A stretch of 43,567 nucleotides of DNA. Origin: Escherichia phage IK_ECO1. Location of the stretch: the sequence record PP975109.1, one strand, 5' to 3'. How positions within the stretch are numbered: the first letter of the stretch is position 1; every line of letters starts with the position of its first letter. Position numbers and translations under genes: made by a program. Shown one piece after another: positions 6,340 through 43,567 of the stretch. The notes below the pieces were generated by a model. That model did not search any database. It saw nothing but the letters and a program-made list of their open reading frames with translations, and had not been told where the DNA came from.

Positions 6340-9300
6340 ATGGCTCAGTTTCTGAACCGAGAACCGAATCCACAGGAAAAGGATTCTGCTAAGGGCGCAA
6401 CACTTAAACCTGCGCCTACAAGCGTAGATTGGAATGACGCAGGAGATGATGGGCTGAATGCCCTACAGCGTTCATCTATACTGGCCCAGGCTAAAACCCC
6501 TGCGACGTCAGCAGGGGAGAGCTTTGCTGCTGGGGTTGGTAACAGCATTATAGCTGCAGCCATTAGAAAGGCCTCCTCCCCAACATTCGTCCCAGAGCAG
6601 GGGTTTGATGCTAAGAAACAACTAAGCACCGACTCCCGAGCTAAGCTCTACACCCCTAATCAGGAAGAGATTGATTACTTGCACGGGGCGGTGTCCCTGG
6701 ATGATTATAATTATCGCATTCAGGCTATGCTAGAACAGCGTGACCGTGACCGTCAGATGTCTGATAACACGGTAGCCGGGTTCACCGGTGCACTGGCTGG
6801 TGATGCTCCGTTTATACTGGCTCCGATGTCAGCGGCGGGTATCGCTGGTCGTGCTGGCTTAGCAGTGCGTACTGCTATCCGCGCAGCGGATGTAGGTACA
6901 GCTGTCTATGCACAAGATCAATTGGGACAGTCTGCGGCAGTCACTGCTCTGGTAGCAGGGGTAGCTGGACTAGACCAGCTCTGGGACATGTCTAAGGCTG
7001 CTAAAGTAGCAGCAAAGGCACGCACTGGGCGTGAGCCTATGTTTGACCCGGACGCGCCCACAACTCGTACAGCAAGGGATGCTAATGTTACAGGAGTAGG
7101 AGAAGGGGACACAATACTCACTAAGGTACTGGATGAACCTATCCAAGTTCGCCGGAATAACACTGCTGCTGTTAACATGAAAGCGCAGGACGTAGTCCGT
7201 TTCCTCAAGACCTCTGAACACTTATCTAAAGGTCAGAAGGCTATCCTGGACACCCTGGGTGATGCAGTACAGGATATTGATTTTAAACTGGTGGCTGGTT
7301 CTTCTAACCGTAGCCACTATGGATTTTCACCAGCATCAACCACTGATAGGGGTTTTGTATCTTTACGTGCCCCTAAGAAAGCTAACGGAAGTACCTGGAC
7401 TACTGCTAGGGACGCTCTGCGTGCTATGGATGCGGACACTAGCCGAGTAGCAGTGCACGAGCTGATTCACGCGGCCACCACCAGAGCCATCAAGCAGAAT
7501 CCTGAAATTGCGAGTAAGCTGGAAGAGGTGCGCGCTGCAATAGCATCAGATTCAACTCTTAGTGATAAATTCAAGTATTATGCAAGCGATGTGCACGAGA
7601 TGCTGGCTGGACTGGGAGACAGCCCTGAGTGGGTAGAGTACCTCTCTAGGACTAAATCCCCTACTGGTAAGAGTATGCTTCGCCAGATTGGTGAGTATAT
7701 CATGAATGCGCTTGGGGTCCGTACCAAGGGCTCCGCGCTGGAGGATGTTCTGGACGCGTACGAGGACGCTGTCAAGTGGACCGCAAAGGACTACGCAGAC
7801 CAAGCTCAGGGCTTCCGGAGTGAGTCCTTCCAGGACTTGGCGGATACATCGGTTAAGCATGAGGCCTTGAAAGCTCAGGCTATGATGGACACTGCTAAGC
7901 GTAAGCTCGCCACTATGTTCTCCTTGTATGATAACATCGCAGAAGGTAGTGAGGACCTAGCACGCTTATTAGTATCTGATGCTACTGCTGTAGGAGGTCG
8001 TAAGCCGTCTGTGGTGGACTTCAAGCGTAATCTTACGTTGGAGATGGACGCTAGTGCCAGTGTAGTTGAGGATGCTATACTAGGTGCCCTCAAGGCCAAA
8101 GGTGTAGGTTTCACGGACCGCTTCTTCCATCGTAGCAACTTCCGAGCAGCTCGCGCGGACTTAGAAGACCGCTTAGGCCGTTACCTGGACTCTGCATACA
8201 GTGCTGAGGTTAATGGGCGTCCTGTACCTCTGCCGGACTCCGACTTGGTTCCGCTCGTTGAGGCGTATCGCAACTCTGGTTGGGCTAGTAAGTGGCACGA
8301 CCACATGACCGCTGCCGGTTTAGTGGATGACGGTACTCTGGTTAAATCGGACTACTACTTCCCACGCCAGTATAGCTACGATAAGATGCGCCAAGGTATT
8401 GCAAATGGTCGCTCCCTGGATAATTATCGGGATCTGTTCCGTCAGGCATTACGTGACGTGTATCCATCTATGGAACCTGAGGTCGTTCAACGTGTTGCTA
8501 AGGAGATGGTTGATGGTATCTACAACGGACGCTCCTCGGCCTCTGGTCCTATGTGGAAGCAACTCATCAATGGTATGGGTAATGATGAAGTGGTTATGGC
8601 CATGCGTAATGCTGGCGTAGACGAGAGTGCAATCCAGAGTTTCTTGGCAGGTAATGTCCGAGAATCTGGCGCTACCTCGCCTGCTCGGAACCTGCGTCAA
8701 CGTACCCGCTTCAACATGGATAAAGAGTACATCGTGGATGGTCAGGCTATGCGTATGCAGGACCTGATGGACACTGACGTAGCCAAGGTAATGCACGGTT
8801 ACACCAACCGCATGTCTGGTCGTGTAGGTATGGCCTATGCTGGTGTCTCTGACCTCAAGACTCTAGAGACGATGATTAACGAGTCCAAACACGCCCTAGC
8901 CGATTCGGGTAAGTGGGAGAAGACTGTTAATGATACCATTGACTTTATCCTGGGTGGGGCCCCGGCCGATGCCGGGCAGATGCCGGACCTGTTGCGTGCA
9001 GCGGGGAATATGGCTAACGCTACCATGCTCAAGAACTCTGGATTGTACCAGCTTACTGACACCGCTCTGGCTCTGAAAGAGTTCGGTATGTCCCGAGTAC
9101 TCCGCAGTATGCGTGAGCAGCCCTGGTTTAAAGAGGGTGCCGTAGCTATTCGTAATCCGGACATGGCTAGTCGCCTGGATACAATCCTACGTGGCAGTAT
9201 CCAGAAGGAGATGCGCTTCCGCTGGCTGAATACCTACGCAGACGATAACTTGGACCTGACCCGTCAGGCTTCCTGGTTTAACGTCACGCAGAACGTTGGG

Positions 9301-10039: not shown

Positions 10040-11548
10040 ATGGCATACAGCTGGCAAGAGCAAATCAAGCCAGCTGGTACCCAGGATATCCAGTGTGATA
10101 TTGAGTATTTGGACAAGTCCTATATTCATGTATATCTCGACGGCGTCGAAACCACTGGGTACACCTGGACCAGCTCTACAAATATTAGGCTGAACACAGC
10201 CTTGACAGCGGATACGACGGTACTGCTCATTCGCAAGACCGAGCGCGAGTATCTGTACATTGAGTTTGCTAGTGGTTCCCCATTCATCGAGGTGAACGTA
10301 GACTCTCAAAACACCCAGTTCTTACACTTAGCTCAAGAGCTGGTGGAGGGTAGGGCCATCCCCGGATTCTACGGGGATATAAGCATGAACGGCTTCCGCA
10401 TCACCAACTTAGGTACTGGGGTTAATCCGGGGGATGCCGTTAACAAGGGACAGCTTGACGTGGTAGATGCACGTGTAACCAGTCTGGAAGAGACGTGGGT
10501 AACGGCTGCTACCAGCTATCCTTGGTACACTACTACCACCACTGAAACCGACGTACTGGACCCGCCCTTTAACTTCACTAAGGCTGCTCTGTACATCACT
10601 GGTGTGTGCCAGACCCCAGGCTATAGCTACGTGGTAGTAGATAATCAGATTATGCTAGCGGACCCTGTACCTGCGGGTACGCACATCTTTGCCCGCCTAG
10701 GTGAGGATGTAGGTCTAGACCCTAACTATGCCACCGCAGACCAGCTAGCTGCTGCTATCAGTCAAGCGCAGCTTGAGCATAACGCGCTACAGGCGGGTAT
10801 CGATGGCAAAGCAGCTAAGGGTGCTAACTCTGATATCACGAGCTTGAGCGGGCTTATAACGCCTCTCAGCACAACTCAGGGTGGTACAGGTAGTACTACT
10901 GGAGTAGCACCTAAAGCTACTGTTCTTGAAACCTCTCGTACAGTACAAGTAAACCTAGCAACCACCACCGCAGCCAGTTTCGATGGTTCCGCCAACATCT
11001 CTCCAGGTGTAACAGGTACGCTACCTGTAGTCAACGGAGGTACAGGTGGTACTACCCCAGCGGGCGCTCGTGGTAATCTAGGGGCTGCTGCTAGCGGTTC
11101 TAACTCGGATATTACCGCACTCACCTCGTTGAGCGGCGGTATTACTGGCCTGACTACAGGTACTGCGGCTGCTCCGGGTATCGTAGGACAGGAGCTGTCT
11201 GCGTCGTCTGGTACGGCTGTATCCTTAACTTCTGGGACCCTGACCAACGTAGCAAGCATCAGCCTACCTGCTGGGGATTGGGAGCTAGAGAGTGCGTTGC
11301 GTGTAACTAACGCAGGCAACATCACGCTCCTGAACTTTGGGGTCAGTGCTACCTCAGCCACCCTGCCTACAGATTGGTGGGACCGTTACAACATCACTAC
11401 AACGCTGGCAGCAGGTACTTCTACTCGTCAGGGTATGTCTCGCAGGGTTCTGCTCAGCGCGACTACTACACTGTACCTAGTAGCGCAGGCTACCTTCACC
11501 AGTACCTGTACAGCAGACGGTTATATCAGAGCACGGAGGGTGCGTTAA
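10040..11548 (+). CDS. Tail fiber protein with T7 gp17-like N-terminal adaptor domain, 502 aa
   Basis: N-terminal region (…RITNLGTGVNPGDAVNKGQLD…) resembles T7-type fiber anchor; internal repeat GANSDITSLSG / GSNSDITALTSLSG; position before terminase. Confidence 0.6.
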   Translation: MAYSWQEQIKPAGTQDIQCDIEYLDKSYIHVYLDGVETTGYTWTSSTNIRLNTALTADTTVLLIRKTEREYLYIEFASGSPFIEVNVDSQNTQFLHLAQELVEGRAIPGFYGDISMNGFRITNLGTGVNPGDAVNKGQLDVVDARVTSLEETWVTAATSYPWYTTTTTETDVLDPPFNFTKAALYITGVCQTPGYSYVVVDNQIMLADPVPAGTHIFARLGEDVGLDPNYATADQLAAAISQAQLEHNALQAGIDGKAAKGANSDITSLSGLITPLSTTQGGTGSTTGVAPKATVLETSRTVQVNLATTTAASFDGSANISPGVTGTLPVVNGGTGGTTPAGARGNLGAAASGSNSDITALTSLSGGITGLTTGTAAAPGIVGQELSASSGTAVSLTSGTLTNVASISLPAGDWELESALRVTNAGNITLLNFGVSATSATLPTDWWDRYNITTTLAAGTSTRQGMSRRVLLSATTTLYLVAQATFTSTCTADGYIRARRVR

Positions 11549-11850
11549 TGGCAAAGGCGGCAACCAAGAGCCGTCTCAGCGAACTTCACAGGATGTTTGC
11601 TGAGGCGCTGATTAGCGAACTCAAGCAGGCCGGGGAAGATGAGGTCCCTTTACCGGCTGCTGATAAATCTGTTATTGCCAAGTTCCTGAAAGACAATGAC
11701 ATTACCGCCGATGCAGATTCCGAGGAGATGCAGGAGCTACGTGATGAATTCGATGACGAACTAGCGGCGCGCAGAGAGGCGCGTAAGAAAGAGATTTTGA
11801 ACAAGATTAGTGGTTCAGACTCTGAGGACTTACTAGAAGGAATTGTCTAA
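11548..11850 (+). CDS. Putative terminase small subunit (DNA maturase A), 100 aa, acidic C-terminus
   Basis: ATG at 11548 overlapping fiber stop by 1 nt, RBS ggaggg; immediately upstream of terminase large subunit; the track ORF 11374-11850 is the same frame with an earlier spurious start. Confidence 0.45.
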   Translation: MAKAATKSRLSELHRMFAEALISELKQAGEDEVPLPAADKSVIAKFLKDNDITADADSEEMQELRDEFDDELAARREARKKEILNKISGSDSEDLLEGIV

Positions 11851-13706
11851 TGGTATCGGTGAAGACTGCGCGAAGACTGCGCATGCTCAACCAGAAACTT
11901 ACTGGTTATAGTGTGAACCCGCGCAGTATTCCCAAAGAGGAGCGCGAGGATATCGCCATGATGATGGCGGCTACCCTCAGTAATTTCAGGGAGTTCGCAT
12001 ACATCGGTATGCGTTTCCTAGGCTTTACGCTCACGGACATGCAAGCCGACATTGCAGAGTATATGCAGAAGGGTCCTAGAAAGCGTATGGTGGCTGCGCA
12101 GCGTGGTGAGGCTAAATCTACGCTAGCTGCATTATACGCTGTCTGGAGGCTCATCCAGGACCAATCCTGCCGTATACTGATTGTATCTGGTGCGGAGAAG
12201 CAGGCGTCCGACGTTGCGAACTTAATCATTCGTATGTTGGAAACCTGGCCGCTGTTGTGTTACTTGAAGGCTGACCCTACGCGCGGGGACCGTACTTCAT
12301 TCGAAGGTTATGATGTCAACTGCGACCTGAAACCACTGGATAAGTCTGCTAGCGTAGCCTGTGTAGGTATCACTGCATCACTGCAGGGTAAGCGTGCTGA
12401 CCTCTTGATTCCAGATGATATTGAGACTACTAAGAACGGTTTAACACAAACCCAGCGTGAGCAGTTGCTGATGATTTCGAAAGACTTCGCAGCTATCTGT
12501 ACACATGGGGATACACTGTACCTGGGTACACCGCAGACCAAGGACAGTATTTATAAAACCCTGCCGGGACGTGGCTTTGAAGTACGAGTATGGCCTGGAC
12601 GTATCCCGTCAGTTGAAATGGAAGAACGATATGGAAGTACACTTGCTCCTTATATACTGCAGCTCATTGAGCGGGGTTATAAACGTACCGGGTTCGGAGT
12701 AGACGGAACACTAGGTGAGAGCACAGACCCCGGTCGTTACGATGAGGATGCGCTGATTGAGAAGGAGCTGGACTTCGGTCCAGAGGGCTTCCAGCTGCAG
12801 TACATGCTCGATACAACCTTATCGGACCAGATGCGTACCCGTATCAAGTTGTCGGATATGCTTGTGTACTCCGGTAGCCTAGATTCCTCACCTGAGACCT
12901 TCTCCTATATTGCAGACCGTCGGTACTTGTACCAGCATGAGCATGAGGGGATTATGGGTCAGCAGATGTACTTCCCGGCATTCTACGGAGATATGCACTT
13001 GCCGTATCAGCACAAGGTGTTGGTAGTGGACCCAGCTGGTTGTGGTGGGGATGAAGTCTCCTATGCTGCGGGCGGGGCTGCTAACTCATACATTCATCTG
13101 TTCTCCGTTGGGGGCTTCCAAGGAGGTGTGAGCACCGAGAATATCGACAAGCTCATCGACCTGTGCGTAGAGTTAGACATCTCTGACATGGTGGTAGAGA
13201 GTAACATGGGGCACGGTACCGTGTCTATGCTTATTCTGAACCGCTTACGAGAGCGTCACCTTGCTGGTATTGGTGTGCGTGACATTAACAACACCACGCA
13301 GAAAGAACGTCGTATCATAGACACAATCAGTCCAGTAACTCGACGACACCGCCTAGTGGTGCATGAGCGTGCTATTCACGATGATATTGGGACTTGTATG
13401 CTATACTCCCGAGATCGTCGCTGGTTGTACTCTGCGTTCGCACAGCTCGCAGGTATTACGTATGACCGGGGTAGCTTGGCTAAGGATGACCGAGCAGACG
13501 CCATCGCTATGATGGTAGCAGTACTGAACGGGCATCTGGTAGAAGACGAGAAAGTGGTAGCTGCACGAGAGTCTGAGAAGCAGGCACTAGCATTCATCAA
13601 TAACCCGCTGGACTGGGCGCAGGGTATGGTCCAGAAACAGTTGCGGGGAGTCGCTGCACGGCTGCAAGGTCGGGGTAGAGGCAAACAACATAGAGGAAGA
13701 CGATAA
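11850..13706 (+). CDS. Terminase large subunit (DNA maturase B), 618 aa
   Basis: Size and position typical of T7 gp19; nuclease-like segment VLVVDPAGCGGDEVSYA; start overlaps upstream stop. Confidence 0.7.
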   Translation: MVSVKTARRLRMLNQKLTGYSVNPRSIPKEEREDIAMMMAATLSNFREFAYIGMRFLGFTLTDMQADIAEYMQKGPRKRMVAAQRGEAKSTLAALYAVWRLIQDQSCRILIVSGAEKQASDVANLIIRMLETWPLLCYLKADPTRGDRTSFEGYDVNCDLKPLDKSASVACVGITASLQGKRADLLIPDDIETTKNGLTQTQREQLLMISKDFAAICTHGDTLYLGTPQTKDSIYKTLPGRGFEVRVWPGRIPSVEMEERYGSTLAPYILQLIERGYKRTGFGVDGTLGESTDPGRYDEDALIEKELDFGPEGFQLQYMLDTTLSDQMRTRIKLSDMLVYSGSLDSSPETFSYIADRRYLYQHEHEGIMGQQMYFPAFYGDMHLPYQHKVLVVDPAGCGGDEVSYAAGGAANSYIHLFSVGGFQGGVSTENIDKLIDLCVELDISDMVVESNMGHGTVSMLILNRLRERHLAGIGVRDINNTTQKERRIIDTISPVTRRHRLVVHERAIHDDIGTCMLYSRDRRWLYSAFAQLAGITYDRGSLAKDDRADAIAMMVAVLNGHLVEDEKVVAARESEKQALAFINNPLDWAQGMVQKQLRGVAARLQGRGRGKQHRGRR

Positions 13707-15519: not shown

Positions 15520-17643
15520 ATGGCTCTCGTACGTAATATTACTGTCCCGAGTTATTACTCTGGACTTAACGTTGTTGACTACGGGGTAGTAGGCGACGGT
15601 ATCTCGGATGATACAGTAGCCTATACTCGAACTGTTGAAGCTGCTAATGCACTGCAACTGCCTGTATATGTACCTCCAGGTATGCGTGTCCGTATCACCG
15701 GTAGTTCTAACATTACACATAAGTACGGTTTTAACTTTAACGGCAGTACCTTGGATATTCAAGAGTATGCTGGTAAGTTCCTGTTCCAGCGCCAGGTAGC
15801 CCCTGTTCAATACTCTGCTGGTTCGCCACTTCTTACTGCTTTAGCAAGTACTACTTTAAGCGGAACTTATAACAGTGTTATGTCAGGCCGTACAGAACTG
15901 GATAACTGCTACGTAAATATAGTTACTAACCAGCCGTACTATACCTACCGTGGGGCTGTTACTACTCGTACTGAACGTTTAGCTGTAATCCGTAACGGTA
16001 TGCTTGAGGGCACTCTTAAATATCCGCTTGCAGGTTCTAGAATCACAGGCATCACTGCATACCCTCTTCCAGATAAGGAAGTAGTGTATGAGAACGTGGT
16101 GGTGGACGTAGGTGCTAATCAGCTGCAAGGTAACCCGTTCCTGATTGAGGCCGATAAGGTACGTTTAGAGAACTGGTCTTTTAAGCAATCTAACGTACTA
16201 TTTACCTCTGTAAATCCAGTATACGTAGTCATGCGTAACTGCTTCCATATGCGCGTACGCAACTTCCAGATGCAGTGGACTACTCGTACCGCTGCTAACA
16301 ACTTTACGTACGGCGTGGCTGCTGAGTACTGTTCAGATATCGAGTTTGACTCAATGAAAGGTGTAGGCGACGGTTGGGGCATGACCGGTTTCAACGAGAA
16401 TCGTCGCTGTACCTTCAGGAACTGTCAGCTTAGCCGAATAGATACGCACCAGCCTTTCATTGAATGGTTGCGTGTGCTGGACTGTGATACCGGTCAGTGG
16501 GGTATTAGTCTAACTGCCTTAGGTGATGTTATTGTTAAAGGTGGTAGCATTACCCTGACTAACGATAGCGTTTATACAGATAAGGTAGGCTTTATACTAT
16601 TGCGTAATGAGTGCGGCGGGGTACTGGATGGTCAGTTAGTAGTTGATGATGTTACCCTCAAGAACTACACCAGTACTACAACTCAAGCCTTAGTATATCA
16701 CCGTGGGGACTTAGCAGATGCCCCACCTTCAGGTTCCCCTGTTAACTTCCAATGCAGTAGCAGTATGCTCATCAAGAACCTGCGTTCAGATGGCCGCATC
16801 GTAGAGCTTGCCCCTACCATCAACGGTGCTTCAGGTATTAAGTACCCGGCCAGTATCGTAGTTCAGGACTGTATTGAAGGTATCTACAGCTTTGCTACTA
16901 ATATAAGTACCTTTACCCCGAACAGTACGATAACTACTCCAGTCGATAACGCCTTAGGTAGTATCTCGAATCTGAAGGTACAGTTACGTAGCTGCAATAT
17001 CCGCAGTAACGTCTCCCTGGTAGATACGTCCATCCCACAGAAATTTGTAGTGGATATGCTGCTTGATGGTGTATTCGGAAACGGTGCATTCAATCCGGGA
17101 CTACAGGTTAAGTTCGGAGGTACTGTCAGCTGTGTTAACTCTGTACTGGAAGGCTTGGACTTCTTCTCAGGGGCTGCACTGGACCGGTACTTGAAGGTGT
17201 CAGTAGTAGGTGGAGGTATTCGCCACACTGGACGTTTCCGTACTGTACCTGTGAACGGGGCTAATACCTTAGTCTCGGTTATTATCCAGGGAGCTGCATT
17301 GCAGAGCACTACGGCTGCTGCATTACGTTATTATATGGTGGCGCATCTGCAAGGTTGTACCTACAGCGTAGCCGGGTCTGCCAGTACCCCTACATTAACT
17401 GTCACCCCAGATGGTAGTACTAGTTACGATACTGGGGTAGTTGGTATTAACAGTAAGAACCTAATGCAACTTACAGCCAGTGTAAGTGGGGTACTTAGAA
17501 GGGTACCGTTCTTCCTGCCTGCTAGTGGTGGTAGTACTTACGTGCAGTTAGATAACGGTGTTTACGCTAACATAACCTACAGCGGAAGTACTGTAACTGT
17601 TTCTACCACAGCAGGTTTAGGCGGGATTACGTTGGTAGGCTGA
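15520..17643 (+). CDS. Tailspike / polysaccharide depolymerase, right-handed beta-helix (pectate-lyase-like), 707 aa
   Basis: N-terminal motif NVVDYGVVGDGISDDT typical of pectate lyase 3 / beta-helix tailspikes; last structural-type gene before the non-coding region; lacks T7 fiber anchor domain. Confidence 0.6.
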   Translation: MALVRNITVPSYYSGLNVVDYGVVGDGISDDTVAYTRTVEAANALQLPVYVPPGMRVRITGSSNITHKYGFNFNGSTLDIQEYAGKFLFQRQVAPVQYSAGSPLLTALASTTLSGTYNSVMSGRTELDNCYVNIVTNQPYYTYRGAVTTRTERLAVIRNGMLEGTLKYPLAGSRITGITAYPLPDKEVVYENVVVDVGANQLQGNPFLIEADKVRLENWSFKQSNVLFTSVNPVYVVMRNCFHMRVRNFQMQWTTRTAANNFTYGVAAEYCSDIEFDSMKGVGDGWGMTGFNENRRCTFRNCQLSRIDTHQPFIEWLRVLDCDTGQWGISLTALGDVIVKGGSITLTNDSVYTDKVGFILLRNECGGVLDGQLVVDDVTLKNYTSTTTQALVYHRGDLADAPPSGSPVNFQCSSSMLIKNLRSDGRIVELAPTINGASGIKYPASIVVQDCIEGIYSFATNISTFTPNSTITTPVDNALGSISNLKVQLRSCNIRSNVSLVDTSIPQKFVVDMLLDGVFGNGAFNPGLQVKFGGTVSCVNSVLEGLDFFSGAALDRYLKVSVVGGGIRHTGRFRTVPVNGANTLVSVIIQGAALQSTTAAALRYYMVAHLQGCTYSVAGSASTPTLTVTPDGSTSYDTGVVGINSKNLMQLTASVSGVLRRVPFFLPASGGSTYVQLDNGVYANITYSGSTVTVSTTAGLGGITLVG

Positions 17644-17662
17644 GGCATATCTGAGGCATATC
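17641..17662. repeat. Tandem 11-mer tgaggcatatc x2 beginning at the tailspike stop codon
   Basis: Seen directly in sequence. Confidence 0.8.
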
Positions 17663-17681
17663 TCAGGAAAGTGCATTAAGG

Positions 17682-17707
17682 TACATGGAAATCCTACATG
17701 GAAATCC
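17682..17707. repeat. Perfect tandem 13-mer tacatggaaatcc x2
   Basis: Seen directly in sequence. Confidence 0.85.
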
Positions 17708-17819
17708 CAGACTGAGCGCATGTAAACGTGCAGTTCATTTTTATTATACTTATGCGAGGACCTCCCTCACCCTCAACGCGCCCCAGTGCCCCCATAGGGG
17801 GTGCCCAGTGGAAATTAGA

Positions 17820-17830
17820 GGGGGGGGGGG
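17820..17830. repeat. G11 homopolymer flanked by palindromes (cccccataggggg; gcaggccaactagtgggcctgc)
   Basis: Seen directly in sequence. Confidence 0.8.
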
Positions 17831-17857
17831 TGGACGTTTAGACGTCTAGCAGGCCAA

Positions 17858-18280
17858 CTAGTGGGCCTGCTAGTGCGCTCTAGGGAGCCGTAGAAGCTCC
17901 CTGCGTGCCTTAGTGGGTATTGCTAGTGCTATCCTATGCTTATCGCTGTGTGCCTCTTGTAGAAGCTCTGGGAAGCTCTGGGAGGCACTGGGCTATCCCT
18001 TGCTATCCCTGCGTATTCACTGGGTGCGCTCTGGGCTATCCCTGCGTGCTCTCTGTGGGGCGTAGGGGGTGCGCTCTGCCTTGCTTATTTTGTGCCTGTA
18101 TTGTGCGCCTAGTGGGCCAGCTAGTGCGCTGTGGTGCTATCCCTAGTGCGTACTAGGCTATCCACTGGCTATCCTTAGTGCTTTACATTGTGCCGATTCT
18201 GTGCTACGCTGCGCGCTCCCCACTAGGGCGCACATCCACTACCCACCACACACCGCCACCTAGTGCTATCTCTTCACCCT
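17858..18280. repeat. Dense family of short direct repeats (ctagtg(c/g), gctatcc(c)t, gaagctctggg x2, ctgggctatccctgcgt x2) in non-coding DNA; probable genome-terminus / packaging or replication-associated region
   Basis: Repeats read by eye; no credible ORF; resembles short-repeat arrays near T7-type genome ends. Confidence 0.5.
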
Positions 18281-18309
18281 TACTTTCATTCGAAAGCTAA
18301 TAAGAAATG

Positions 18310-18327
18310 ATGTTACAGGAGTAGGAG
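18310..18327 (+). promoter_or_regulatory. Copy of repeated motif atgttacaggagtaggag in non-coding region; candidate phage RNAP promoter
   Basis: Exact identity with copies at 7085 and 38994. Confidence 0.4.
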
Positions 18328-18781
18328 GGTTTTAGGGCACTACATACACACTACCTACTACTACTCACTAGTATCCCCTAGTAATGCCCTATATTACGAC
18401 CGTAGGGAGTAAGCATTACCTACACAGTCACCGCATCACTACGTGCCCTTTCACTTCGTACGGGCACTACGTTCTGCTTATGTAGTGTTAGATGGTATTA
18501 GTTAGCATTGGCTAGTATTGGTTACAGCCATTGGCTGCATAGTGCTATCTCTAGAGCTATCACTAGAATAGAAGCATTGGCTAAGTGTTTGCCCTGCTTA
18601 CTCTTTTTGCTCTTAAGGATAAATAGTTGCAAAAAGTATCAAATAGTACTTGCTTCTTTTGGTTTATTGGCGCTATAGTTCAATCACCGGGAGGCACTGA
18701 GGCGCTGAACGGGGTAGAGTCGGGAGACTCCACCGGATTAAAGCTAGATGGTGTGAAGGGTTAGATACTCGATAAAAAGAG

Positions 18782-18810
18782 TTGACACCGCGAAGAACAT
18801 AAGCTAGATT
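18782..18810 (+). promoter_or_regulatory. Candidate host sigma70 early promoter: TTGACA - 17 nt - TAGATT
   Basis: Perfect -35 hexamer, 17-nt spacer, -10 with TAnnnT; upstream of early genes on the coding strand. Confidence 0.45.
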
Positions 18811-19010
18811 GAATCCCGAAGTAAGTAGTAAGGGTCGCTACCGGCTCCCACGGTAGCAGTTCGGGAAGGTACTACAACCTAACAAGGGCTTGACTAGCCC
18901 GCTAGTGTACCGCTGAGGCGGAGTAATACAGGACGCAAAGTGTCGCCCGCTGAGGGGCTACAGCTCACGGGGGAGGTTAACAGGCTCCCGATTTAGTAAG
19001 AAATAAACGC

Positions 19011-19039
19011 TTGACAAGTTCCGCTTACCTGAGTAACTT
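19011..19039 (+). promoter_or_regulatory. Candidate host sigma70 early promoter: TTGACA - 17 nt - TAACTT
   Basis: Perfect -35 hexamer, 17-nt spacer, weaker -10; further TTGACT/TTGACG hexamers at 18890, 19092, 19104 lack good -10 elements. Confidence 0.35.
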
Positions 19040-19070
19040 AGATAGTGAACAACGTAGTAAGCTGGTTTGC

Positions 19071-19082
19071 GGGGGGGGGGGG
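19071..19082. repeat. G12 homopolymer in the early leader
   Basis: Seen directly in sequence. Confidence 0.8.
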
Positions 19083-19431
19083 CCCAGTACCTTGACTGGT
19101 ACGTTGACGACCCATCCCCTAGACAATCAGTAGTAGTGAAGATGTAACGTCAAGAGCTGAGACGACAAACGGCTGGGGCGCTGAGGCGCTGCCCCTTAAA
19201 AGAATAGCGCCGAGAGGTTGAGTCCCTTCCACGGTTGTGCAGTGGGTCGTACTCACAGGTTGGCAGTCCTGAGCCGATAAGTGCATAGGCAGTCGCTCCC
19301 GTATCCAGTGAGCGCGGCAAATACTGCTGGTATCCTAGCAACCACTGGGCTAGGGGTGTTTGAGTTGGGTTTTAGGCGGGCAAATACATTCCGCCAGAAC
19401 TCAACCCATCAAACACTGAGAGGAGTACACA

Positions 19432-19647
19432 ATGAAATATCGTGATAAGTTAGCGCAACAATTCGCGGGGTTGGGGAAGCTATCTGGCGCTGAGTTGAGG
19501 AAGCGTCGGGATGCACTAAATCGTGCTGGGTATATGCGGGTGAAGCAATCTGCGACGTTCAGTACGAATGTACGCGGTAAGACCAAAACAAAGGGCAGTA
19601 GCAAGGCCCCGCAAGGCTGGTATACTGCTGGGCAGTTCGGACGCTAA
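19432..19647 (+). CDS. Early hypothetical protein, 71 aa, basic
   Basis: RBS gaggag 7 nt upstream of ATG; first ORF after the promoter region. Confidence 0.5.
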   Translation: MKYRDKLAQQFAGLGKLSGAELRKRRDALNRAGYMRVKQSATFSTNVRGKTKTKGSSKAPQGWYTAGQFGR

Positions 19648-19676
19648 TTACAGCCTATAGCATCCTGTGGGGTGCT
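19642..19676 (+). promoter_or_regulatory. Conserved stem-loop element, copy 1 (agcctatagcatcctgtggggtgctatgtgaagta)
   Basis: One of three related intergenic elements; stem tagcatcc / gggtgcta. Confidence 0.4.
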
Positions 19677-19725
19677 ATGTGAAGTAATTCGTTAGGTAAA
19701 CAATCAACAATCGATGAGGTGTATC

Positions 19726-20443: not shown

Positions 20444-20478
20444 AGCCTATAGCGTCCTACGGGGCGCTATGTGAATAC
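20444..20478 (+). promoter_or_regulatory. Conserved stem-loop element, copy 2 (agcctatagcgtcctacggggcgctatgtgaatac)
   Basis: Stem tagcgtcc / gggcgcta; differs from copy 1 by paired compensatory changes. Confidence 0.4.
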
Positions 20479-27742: not shown

Positions 27743-27747
27743 CTTCC

Positions 27748-27780
27748 CTAGCGCCTTCCTAGAGGGCGCTATGTAGGTAC
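27748..27780 (+). promoter_or_regulatory. Conserved stem-loop element, copy 3 (ctagcgccttcctagagggcgctatgtaggtac)
   Basis: Stem tagcgcc / ggcgcta followed by tatgt…gta as in copies 1 and 2. Confidence 0.35.
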
Positions 27781-30957: not shown

Positions 30958-31080
30958 TGATAGGTGGACCCTTGGGTGGTGTAGGGGGTTAGGGTAACAT
31001 GAGAATTAGCTGGGGTCAAGCAGATAATTAAATAAAATTATTTGTTGACTCTGGCTTGATTTTGTGATTCACAGAGAATT

Positions 31081-31099
31081 AATGTGATACGAGTAGGAA
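31081..31099 (+). promoter_or_regulatory. Variant of the repeated motif (aatgtgatacgagtaggaa), 20 nt upstream of the HNH gene at 31119; candidate phage RNAP promoter
   Basis: 16 of 19 positions match aatgttacaggagtaggaa; lies in an AT-rich intergenic segment. Confidence 0.3.
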
Positions 31100-38987: not shown

Positions 38988-38993
38988 AATTTA

Positions 38994-43463: not shown

Positions 43464-43502
43464 CGCCCCTGGTGCCTTCGGGTGCCAGGGGCTTTTTTTT
43501 TT
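43464..43502 (+). terminator. Rho-independent terminator: 12-bp stem gcccctggtgcc / ggtgccaggggc, UUCG loop, T11 tail
   Basis: Seen in sequence; lies after the capsid gene cluster, analogous to T7 T-phi; the T-run is also the start of the window. Confidence 0.8.
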
Positions 43503-43567
43503 TGTCCCTGTCTTAAGGGTCCTAGGGGTCTTTAATAGAGGAACAAATATGAGAGAATTAGATGCTG

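Follow-up and report, generated by a model that had tools for sequence, protein, structure and literature searches.

Does the one long gene-free stretch in the sequence of Escherichia phage IK_ECO1 hold the physical ends of the genome, and does it also control the first genes to be expressed? The window analysed here is the 43,567-nucleotide (nt) sequence of record PP975109.1, to which all positions refer (+, plus strand), and the stretch is the interval 17644-19431. It runs from the stop codon of a gene for a tail fibre/spike protein of 707 amino acids (aa) (15520-17643; phrog_16586) to the ATG at 19432 of the first early gene, which encodes 71 aa (phrog_6352). An earlier note had described this interval as the sole long gene-free stretch, which it is, no other gap of such size being found between plus-strand genes, and had proposed that it contains a genome terminus and an early control region. 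Both the stretch and the rest of the window match the genus Drulisvirus (KP34-like; Autographiviridae, Slopekvirinae), and the evidence below makes it very probable that the stretch combines the concatemer junction of a KP34-type (Drulisvirus, Autographiviridae) phage with its early control region. This architecture is already published for KP34, fHe-Kpn01 and phiBO1E. Four points are modestly new, none of them having been found in the literature searched: the exact ends, as predicted here from sequence motifs; a palindrome identical to one of T7 and at the same distance from the end; an 11-base-pair (bp) period in an array of short repeats; and the position of a hairpin before the first gene, kept across unrelated versions of the leader.

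Predicted physical ends, boundary islands and short repeats

Experimentally mapped ends are available for two phages of the genus. The terminal repeat of fHe-Kpn01 has 222 bp and blunt ends, as established by PhageTerm, restriction analysis, ligation and Sanger sequencing (PMC7291057), and that of phiBO1E has 224 bp, both ends having been Sanger-sequenced (PMC5453958). Record annotations give repeats of 216 bp for KP34, 247 bp for AttikonH1 and 267 bp for SAA231, and the two annotated copies are identical in phiBO1E, AttikonH1 and fHe-Kpn01. All five relatives begin with (C)CCTCACCCT(G/C)AACG, and their repeats end in ...GCGCTC, in SAA231 one base beyond; next to the repeat, the left unique sequence starts with (T)GCCTTGCTTATTTTG or a close variant. 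The window contains one copy of each boundary motif, CCTCACCCTCAACG at 17765 and GCGCTC/TGCCTTGCTTATTTTG at 18071-18076/18077, where the slash marks the boundary. Both repeat boundaries, at 17765 and 18076, are hence homologous to experimentally mapped termini of the same genus. The motifs predict a direct terminal repeat of 312 bp (17765-18076, +), present as a single copy in the assembly, with the left terminus at 17765 (±1; 17764 according to the KP34 annotation) and the right terminus after 18076. The probable terminus of the earlier note is supported in this way by homology, not by read data.

The length predicted for the repeat is within the range of the genus, since the spacing of the same two motifs gives repeats of 192-338 bp in at least 25 related contigs; an insertion in the short-repeat array, at ~17985-18040, accounts for the extra length. 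Assemblies in IMG/VR point to the same left end. Five of them (L036, L040, L044, L046 and L048) start exactly at the left motif or one base before it and another five (L023, L024, L027, L035 and L063) within a few bases of it, and a true DNA end at this motif would be expected to give such independent assembly starts. The same phage was sought in IMG/VR by means of an exact 23-mer without a match, and exact-protein look-ups with the tail fibre protein and ORF1 (ORF, open reading frame) found none on record.

Conservation was determined from an alignment of 15 junctions, with consensus counts over 32 (left) and 46 (right) distinct sequences. Two sharp islands of conservation lie exactly at the predicted cuts, and the sequence that separates them varies and has many insertions and deletions. 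The left island (17716-17810) consists of an A/T-rich TTTATTATACT block, followed by CCTC/CCTCACCCT and then by GCCCCCATAGGGGGTGC. Its portion just left of the predicted cut (17716-17764, +), which is the right end of the unique sequence and contains the A/T-rich TTTTATTATACTTA, we infer to be a packaging or cleavage signal. The right island (18050-18095) contains the nearly invariant repeat boundary GCGCTC/TGCCTTGCTTATTTTGTGC (18071-18095, +), and a further block ~100-165 nt right of the repeat, GTGCTTTACATTGTGCC...CCCCACTAGGGCGCACATCCAC (18180-18240, +), is identical in nearly all aligned junctions.

Within the left island, 25 nt from the predicted left end, lies the 13-nt palindrome CCCCCATAGGGGG (17789-17801). 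It is expected 0.04 times in the window and found once, and it is present in 50 of the 67 fetched loci. The identical 13-mer occupies positions 26-38 of both the T7 and the KP34 genome, and shorter versions occur in SP6 (CCCCATAGGG at 29-38) and phiKMV (CCCCCGTAGG at ~26). Since T7 has the identical palindrome, similar first bases and an A/T-rich block, and since SP6 and phiKMV have the shorter versions, the left cut site appears to follow an old design that these phages share. No paper was found in a literature search for the palindrome string. Two more palindromes follow, GACGT-TTAG-ACGTC at 17833-17846, read from the sequence, and a near-perfect one of 28 nt at 17846-17873, identified by an inverted-repeat search; the three together bear out the palindromes that had been reported around 17779-17870. 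A G11 homopolymer (17820-17830, +) inside the repeat starts ~30 nt after the start of the 13-nt palindrome, and most relatives have a run of 9-15 G at the same place. The only other run of at least eight G in the genome is a G12 tract at 19071-19082 (+), which is shorter in relatives; the lengths of both tracts should be read with the caveat that homopolymer length is error-prone in sequencing. As a side observation, 17832-17847 (GGACGTTTAGACGTCT) reads like two tandem 8-bp met boxes of MetJ, the consensus of which we take to be AGACGTCT. Among four aligned relatives phiBO1E alone shares the segment, and the resemblance is probably a coincidence of 8-bp repeats.

From 17840 to 18280 (+) extends an array of short direct repeats made of CTAGTG/CTAGGG/CTGGG and GCTATCC units, all in one orientation and with a period of ~11 bp. 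The array passes through the terminal repeat, straddles its right boundary and continues for ~200 bp beyond it. The dense short repeats of this type that the earlier note had seen are strongly enriched: GCTATC occurs 10 times in the region and 17 times in the remaining 41.8 kb, with no copy of its complement GATAGC in the region, CTAGTG has 8 copies in the region and 10 elsewhere, and the density of CTAG is four times that elsewhere. Autocorrelation of 4-mers over 17840-18280 peaks at lags of 10-12, 22, 32-34, 43-45 and 53, and this series is present in each half of the array, inside and outside the terminal repeat. The best spectral period is 11.0 bp with a power of 1.98, to which a few recent duplications contribute part; the maximum of 200 shuffles was 1.00, and eight coding controls reached at most 0.59. 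Nine Drulisvirus relatives have periods of 11-11.5 bp, which are not independent tests because these phages are homologous; the period is 11.5 bp in SP6 and 13.5 bp in T7, and phiKMV has none. Long-range inverted repeats near the right boundary were set aside as probable by-products of the partly self-complementary CTAG-centred units.

Left of the predicted terminus lie two tandem repeats, both noticed before and both real by TRF. The first, CTGAGGCATAT in 2.5 copies (17640-17667, +; period 11, 94% matches), overlaps the tail fibre stop codon, and the second, TACATGGAAATCC, is perfect (17682-17707, +; period 13, 2.0 copies, 100% matches). Neither is conserved in relatives among the 15 aligned junctions, and the first is probably a lineage-specific slippage duplication.

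The window boundaries, on the other hand, are assembler ends and not physical ends, because bases 1-77 recur at 43491-43567 with one mismatch, C at 25 and A at 43515, which is possibly a polymorphism within the phage population. In the window the genome has been assembled as a closed circle whose joined ends overlap, and the unique length is 43,490 bp. The assembly break sits in the T-run of the terminator hairpin GCCCCTGGTGCCTTCGGGTGCCAGGGGC (43466-43492), so that the suspicion that the true ends are not at the window boundaries was correct. This hairpin has been described in print (PMC4411677) as the terminator conserved in the genus. The nearest relative is Escherichia phage Minorna, with ~91% identity across 91% of a 24-kb query. 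As the usual species line is 95% identity, the phage is on this comparison a new species-level member of Drulisvirus. It encodes the small (11374-11850; phrog_891, 1.6e-31) and the large terminase subunit (11850-13706; phrog_38, 3.6e-115) and a single-subunit RNA polymerase (phrog_414, 2.1e-275) of 822 aa that is 95% identical to the KP34 enzyme.

Predicted promoters and leader of the first gene

Right of the repeat, at 18308-18323 (+), lies the strong promoter S2 of the phage RNA polymerase, TGATGTTACAGGAGTA, which is identical to KP34 S2 and fits the 16-nt strong promoter T(A/G)ATGTTACAGGAGTA; its predicted start is G 18324, with transcription rightwards. KP34 S2 drives the KP34 RNA polymerase in vitro, and initiation takes place at the base after the 16-mer (Lu et al., PMC6834552). 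The promoter is 544 nt from the predicted end, compared with 475 nt in KP34, and its flanks are highly conserved across the 15 aligned junctions. It belongs to a promoter-like motif with four copies in the window, and the one 17-nt copy that had been ascribed to the region is indeed found there, at 18308-18326. Exact copies of S1 lie at 38992, directly after the polymerase gene, and at 7083, at genome positions that correspond to KP34 22197 and 33721. A degenerate copy at 31080-31098 (TAATGTGATACGAGTAGGA; 84% to the reference), not reported in KP34, could represent either a weak promoter or a chance relic.

Three candidate pairs of sigma70-type hexamers, with spacers of 17-18 nt, face the first gene. 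One passes the promoter scan, and the other two match less well and were picked out by inspection; each of the three is conserved, and for two of them a matching prediction has been published. The scan site, TTGACA-N17-TAGATT (18782-18810, +; 10 of 12 matches), is annotated in KP34 and agrees letter for letter with the host promoter predicted for KP34, SU503, SU552A and F19 (PMC4411677). The candidate TTGACA-N17-TAACTT (19011-19039, +) matches the prediction TTGACAAGTTCCGATTCACTGAGTAACTT in F19 and NTUH-K2044-K1-1 (PMC4411677). The third candidate, TTGCTT-N18-TATAGT (18650-18679, +), was missed by the strict scan; like the scan site it falls within the nearly invariant block 18580-18815, which is conserved above the first gene itself. 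S2 and the host promoters predicted for the genus in the literature together support the early control region that had been proposed.

The most A/T-rich segment of the region, 18560-18680 (31-35% G+C in the composition profile), lies upstream of the first host promoter and overlaps it. It could be asked whether S2 and this segment downstream of it also act as a replication origin, in the manner of the secondary origin phiOL of T7, a role that would be compatible with a junction and control region. The order of the elements is T7-like, with the phage promoter and then an A/T-rich stretch ahead of the host promoters, and S2 and its flanks are very highly conserved. However, ~250 nt separate S2 from the A/T-rich segment, for which upstream elements of host promoters are an equally good explanation, and an origin in any Drulisvirus would be putative; cumulative GC skew is uninformative here, because all genes lie on one strand. 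An additional function as origin is possible but doubtful.

From the predicted host promoters to the ATG the untranslated RNA would measure 390-750 nt. Two local hairpins were identified in it. The first, GGGGC-GCTGAGGCGCT-GCCCC (19175-19195, +), results from an alignment fold, and one of its stem pairs changes from G-C to A-U in two of five sequences. The second is a long imperfect hairpin of ~25 pairs (19355-19417, +; z -3.6) that ends 2 nt before the Shine-Dalgarno sequence GAGGAG (19420-19425) of the first gene; three of its pairs are changed on both sides among eight sequences. Across the genus (L023-L065), the last ~200-230 nt of the leader come in three versions without sequence relatedness, and the leader end is a point of mosaic exchange. 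The second version, too, has a long hairpin that stops immediately ahead of the ribosome binding site (z -3.65 and -2.6); the third has no hairpin and contains an additional small ORF preceded by a ribosome binding site of its own. The corresponding hairpin of T7, before gene 0.3, has a z of -2.9 and occupies a position that we take to be the R0.3 RNase III site. With a long imperfect hairpin placed immediately ahead of the ribosome binding site, 19355-19417 has the structure of an R0.3-type site, and by this analogy the hairpin is probably a processing site or a stabiliser. The decamer CGCTGAGGCG, or a variant of it with one mismatch, occurs four times in the early leader, at 18695, 18911, 18948 and 19179, always on the plus strand; some of the copies are part of small hairpins, in either the loop or the stem.

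Some further signals were considered and dropped. The "terminator-like" scan sites 17718-17731 and 18055-18079 were not called terminators, because their stems are poor and they are not conserved as structures. A boxA-like TGCTCTTAAGG at 18609 was discarded because it is upstream of the start sites of the host promoters. Outside the region, the hairpin motif AGCCTATAGC.TCCT..GGGG.GCTATGTGAA is present in three copies (19652-19685, ~20445-20478 and ~27747-27780). A 2015 paper presented it as the "phage promoter" of the genus (PMC4411677), in 2019 it was found inactive with the KP34 RNA polymerase (PMC6834552), and it was not retained as a promoter; its copies are candidates for a processing site or a terminator.

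Weight of the alternative readings

Several points weigh against the stretch being a junction and control region as delimited above. The ends are placed by homology only, and at each boundary the annotation of one relative, KP34 or SAA231, departs by one base from those of the others. Inside the repeat, identity to the nearest relatives is just ~75%, and because the interior carries the lineage-specific insertion at ~17985-18040, the length of the repeat is without a check against any relative. A generic scan finds one sigma70 site (18782-18810) where 2.3 are expected in shuffles, so the sigma70-like promoters of the earlier note show no enrichment; what speaks for them is conservation and the agreement with published predictions. 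Folded in three segments, the whole leader shows no unusual amount of structure (z about -1.45); this leaves no case for a large structured leader RNA, which was rejected, support being limited to the two local hairpins. Finally, across Drulisvirus the function of the host promoters, the hairpin and the repeat array is predicted only.

The first of these points bear on an alternative in which the ends do lie in the region but the repeat is shorter or longer than 312 bp, for example through the remodelled array in its interior. The poorly conserved interior with its lineage-specific insertion, the span of 192-338 bp among the repeats of relatives and the one-base disagreements among annotations would all be in keeping with it. 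On the other hand, both boundary islands are nearly invariant over the 32 and 46 distinct sequences, and four relatives are cut at the same motif positions, fHe-Kpn01 and phiBO1E by experiment and KP34 and AttikonH1 by annotation. Boundaries other than those predicted are for these reasons unlikely.

Even less likely is that the stretch is not gene-free after all and encodes small proteins or a dedicated non-coding RNA gene. This idea draws on the records of phages Hope, JLBP1002 and AttikonH1 (L011, L014 and L004), where pipelines annotated up to ten "hypothetical proteins" of 30-70 aa, on both strands, across the homologous non-coding region, as well as on the block 18580-18815, which is conserved above the level of the neighbouring gene. 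A PHROG family search with the seven internal ORFs of at least 50 aa, however, gave no match, and their frames are uninterrupted for 80% or more of the ORF length in just 0-5 of 62 related loci, compared with 55 of 62 for the neighbouring ORF1 as control. Because of the missing PHROG match and the lack of conservation of the open frames the protein-coding reading was dropped, and the small proteins annotated in the relatives look like pipeline over-calls. As to an RNA gene, the covariance models of Rfam 15 had no match in the region at E-values up to 1, and a search of the region for tRNA and tmRNA found none. The invariant block lacks a relaxed third-position pattern, and promoters sit inside it. 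For annotation this means that the small "hypothetical proteins" called here in relatives should not be called in IK_ECO1.

A genome with no fixed ends, packaged by headful or circularly permuted, in which the region would merely be an intergenic control region, is scarcely credible: the assembly closes to a circle, as that of a permuted genome would too, but a collapsed terminal repeat likewise assembles as a circle, every characterised member of the genus has fixed blunt ends with direct repeats, and IK_ECO1 retains the conserved terminus motifs and the T7-type palindrome.

Comparison with T7 and proposed working of the junction

A concatemer junction joined to an early control region is also what the closest known systems would suggest. 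With KP34, fHe-Kpn01 and phiBO1E the phage shares the terminus motif (C)CCTCACCCT and the palindrome at 25-26 nt, the G-rich tract at the same place, the right boundary GCGCTC/TGCCTTGCTTATTTTG, the S2 16-mer, the TTGACACCGCGAAGAACATAAGCTAGATT host promoter and the first gene. It differs from its Drulisvirus relatives in its longer predicted repeat (312 bp as compared to 216-267 bp), which results from the expanded short-repeat array, in the divergent repeat interior, in the leader, which is one of the three unrelated versions of the genus, and in the two tandem repeats after the tail fibre gene, which are specific to IK_ECO1.

The elements also follow the same order as in T7, where the terminal repeat, short repeats, phiOL, the host promoters A1-A3 and gene 0.3 succeed one another. 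The identical CCCCCATAGGGGG lies at the same distance from the left end; the first bases are TCTCAC in T7 and CCTCAC in IK_ECO1, with an A/T-rich block just left of the cut in both. Both have short repeats of one orientation in and beside the terminal repeat (SRL/SRR-type arrays), a phage promoter ahead of three host promoters (predicted in IK_ECO1) and a long hairpin directly before the first gene. The repeat unit, however, is CCTAAAG with a period of ~13.5 bp in T7, as opposed to CTAGTG/GCTATCC with ~11 bp in IK_ECO1. Since units and period differ (11.0 against 13.5 bp), the array is, as judged from its sequence, an analogue and not a homologue of SRL/SRR. Further differences are the length of the terminal repeat, 160 bp in T7 and 312 bp (predicted) in IK_ECO1, the distance of the promoters from the end, which is about twice as large in IK_ECO1, and the right end, near which T7 has phiOR and IK_ECO1 no phage promoter. 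IK_ECO1 is also without the ATCTGTT that T7 has at the spot right of its repeat, its RNA polymerase pause signal; at the equivalent spot another conserved motif is found, TGCCTTGCTTATTTTG, for which a similar role is possible.

Repeats of this kind are not confined to these two groups. In the T7-like Yersinia fPS phages, 10-bp and 12-bp repeats and homopolymer tracts of variable length are found inside the terminal repeat, and a variable repeat array lies between the terminal repeat and the first phage promoter (PMC5923468). These phages belong to another genus, their repeat sequences are unrelated, and the homopolymer is poly-C rather than poly-G as written.

The elements described above are present in IK_ECO1, with identity or homology to counterparts that have in part been characterised experimentally in relatives; their activity in this phage, and each step of the working proposed below, is inferred from T7 biology, which is reportedly the work of Dunn and Studier, of Chung and Hinkle, of Molineux, and of Zhang and Studier. 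The virion DNA would be linear, starting at ~17765 and finishing at 18076, with 17765-18076 at both ends and a length of ~43,802 bp. In concatemers one copy of the repeat would join two genomes, and the terminase would cut at the two conserved islands flanking it, the repeat being duplicated. Likely parts of the signal would be the palindrome 25 nt inside the left end, the G tract and the one-orientation array with its period of ~11 bp. The left end would enter the cell first. Host RNA polymerase would then start at the sigma70 promoters, 886-1275 nt from the end, and read rightwards into the gene at 19432, its transcript crossing the long leader with the final hairpin as a probable processing site or stabiliser of the R0.3 type. 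Later the phage RNA polymerase would start at S2 (18308-18323) and read through the same region, as from phiOL in T7.

With regard to the array, we tentatively consider that 17840-18280 might be a helically phased platform on which a protein ring wraps the DNA to place both cuts, and that CCCCCATAGGGGG might be a terminus-processing element common to several Autographiviridae subfamilies. The small terminase subunit may be the ring protein, for which it is the obvious candidate. Neither the platform nor the shared palindrome element was found as an idea in the literature searched.

If the predicted ends are adopted, the genome is to be re-oriented to start at 17765, and the 312-bp repeat is to be given at both ends, which would bring the virion length to ~43.8 kb. 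The layout of the T7 left end, with terminal repeat, short repeats, phage promoter, host promoters, processing hairpin and first gene, would hold in the KP34 group as well, to which the present phage adds one more data point, and a CCCCCATAGGGGG at ~25 nt from the end is common to distant subfamilies. The repeat array and the two boundary islands offer defined targets for studying how terminases of the T7 type find and duplicate the terminal repeat, and for packaging vectors based on KP34.

In some relatives the homologous region contains, in addition, an inserted gene for an HNH endonuclease. In vB_VIPKPNTPH03 the insert separates the repeat array from the host promoters, and in SAA231 it follows the tail fibre gene and precedes the right repeat; in the fetched loci it occupies 2238-2624 (L017) and 2120-2581 (L006).

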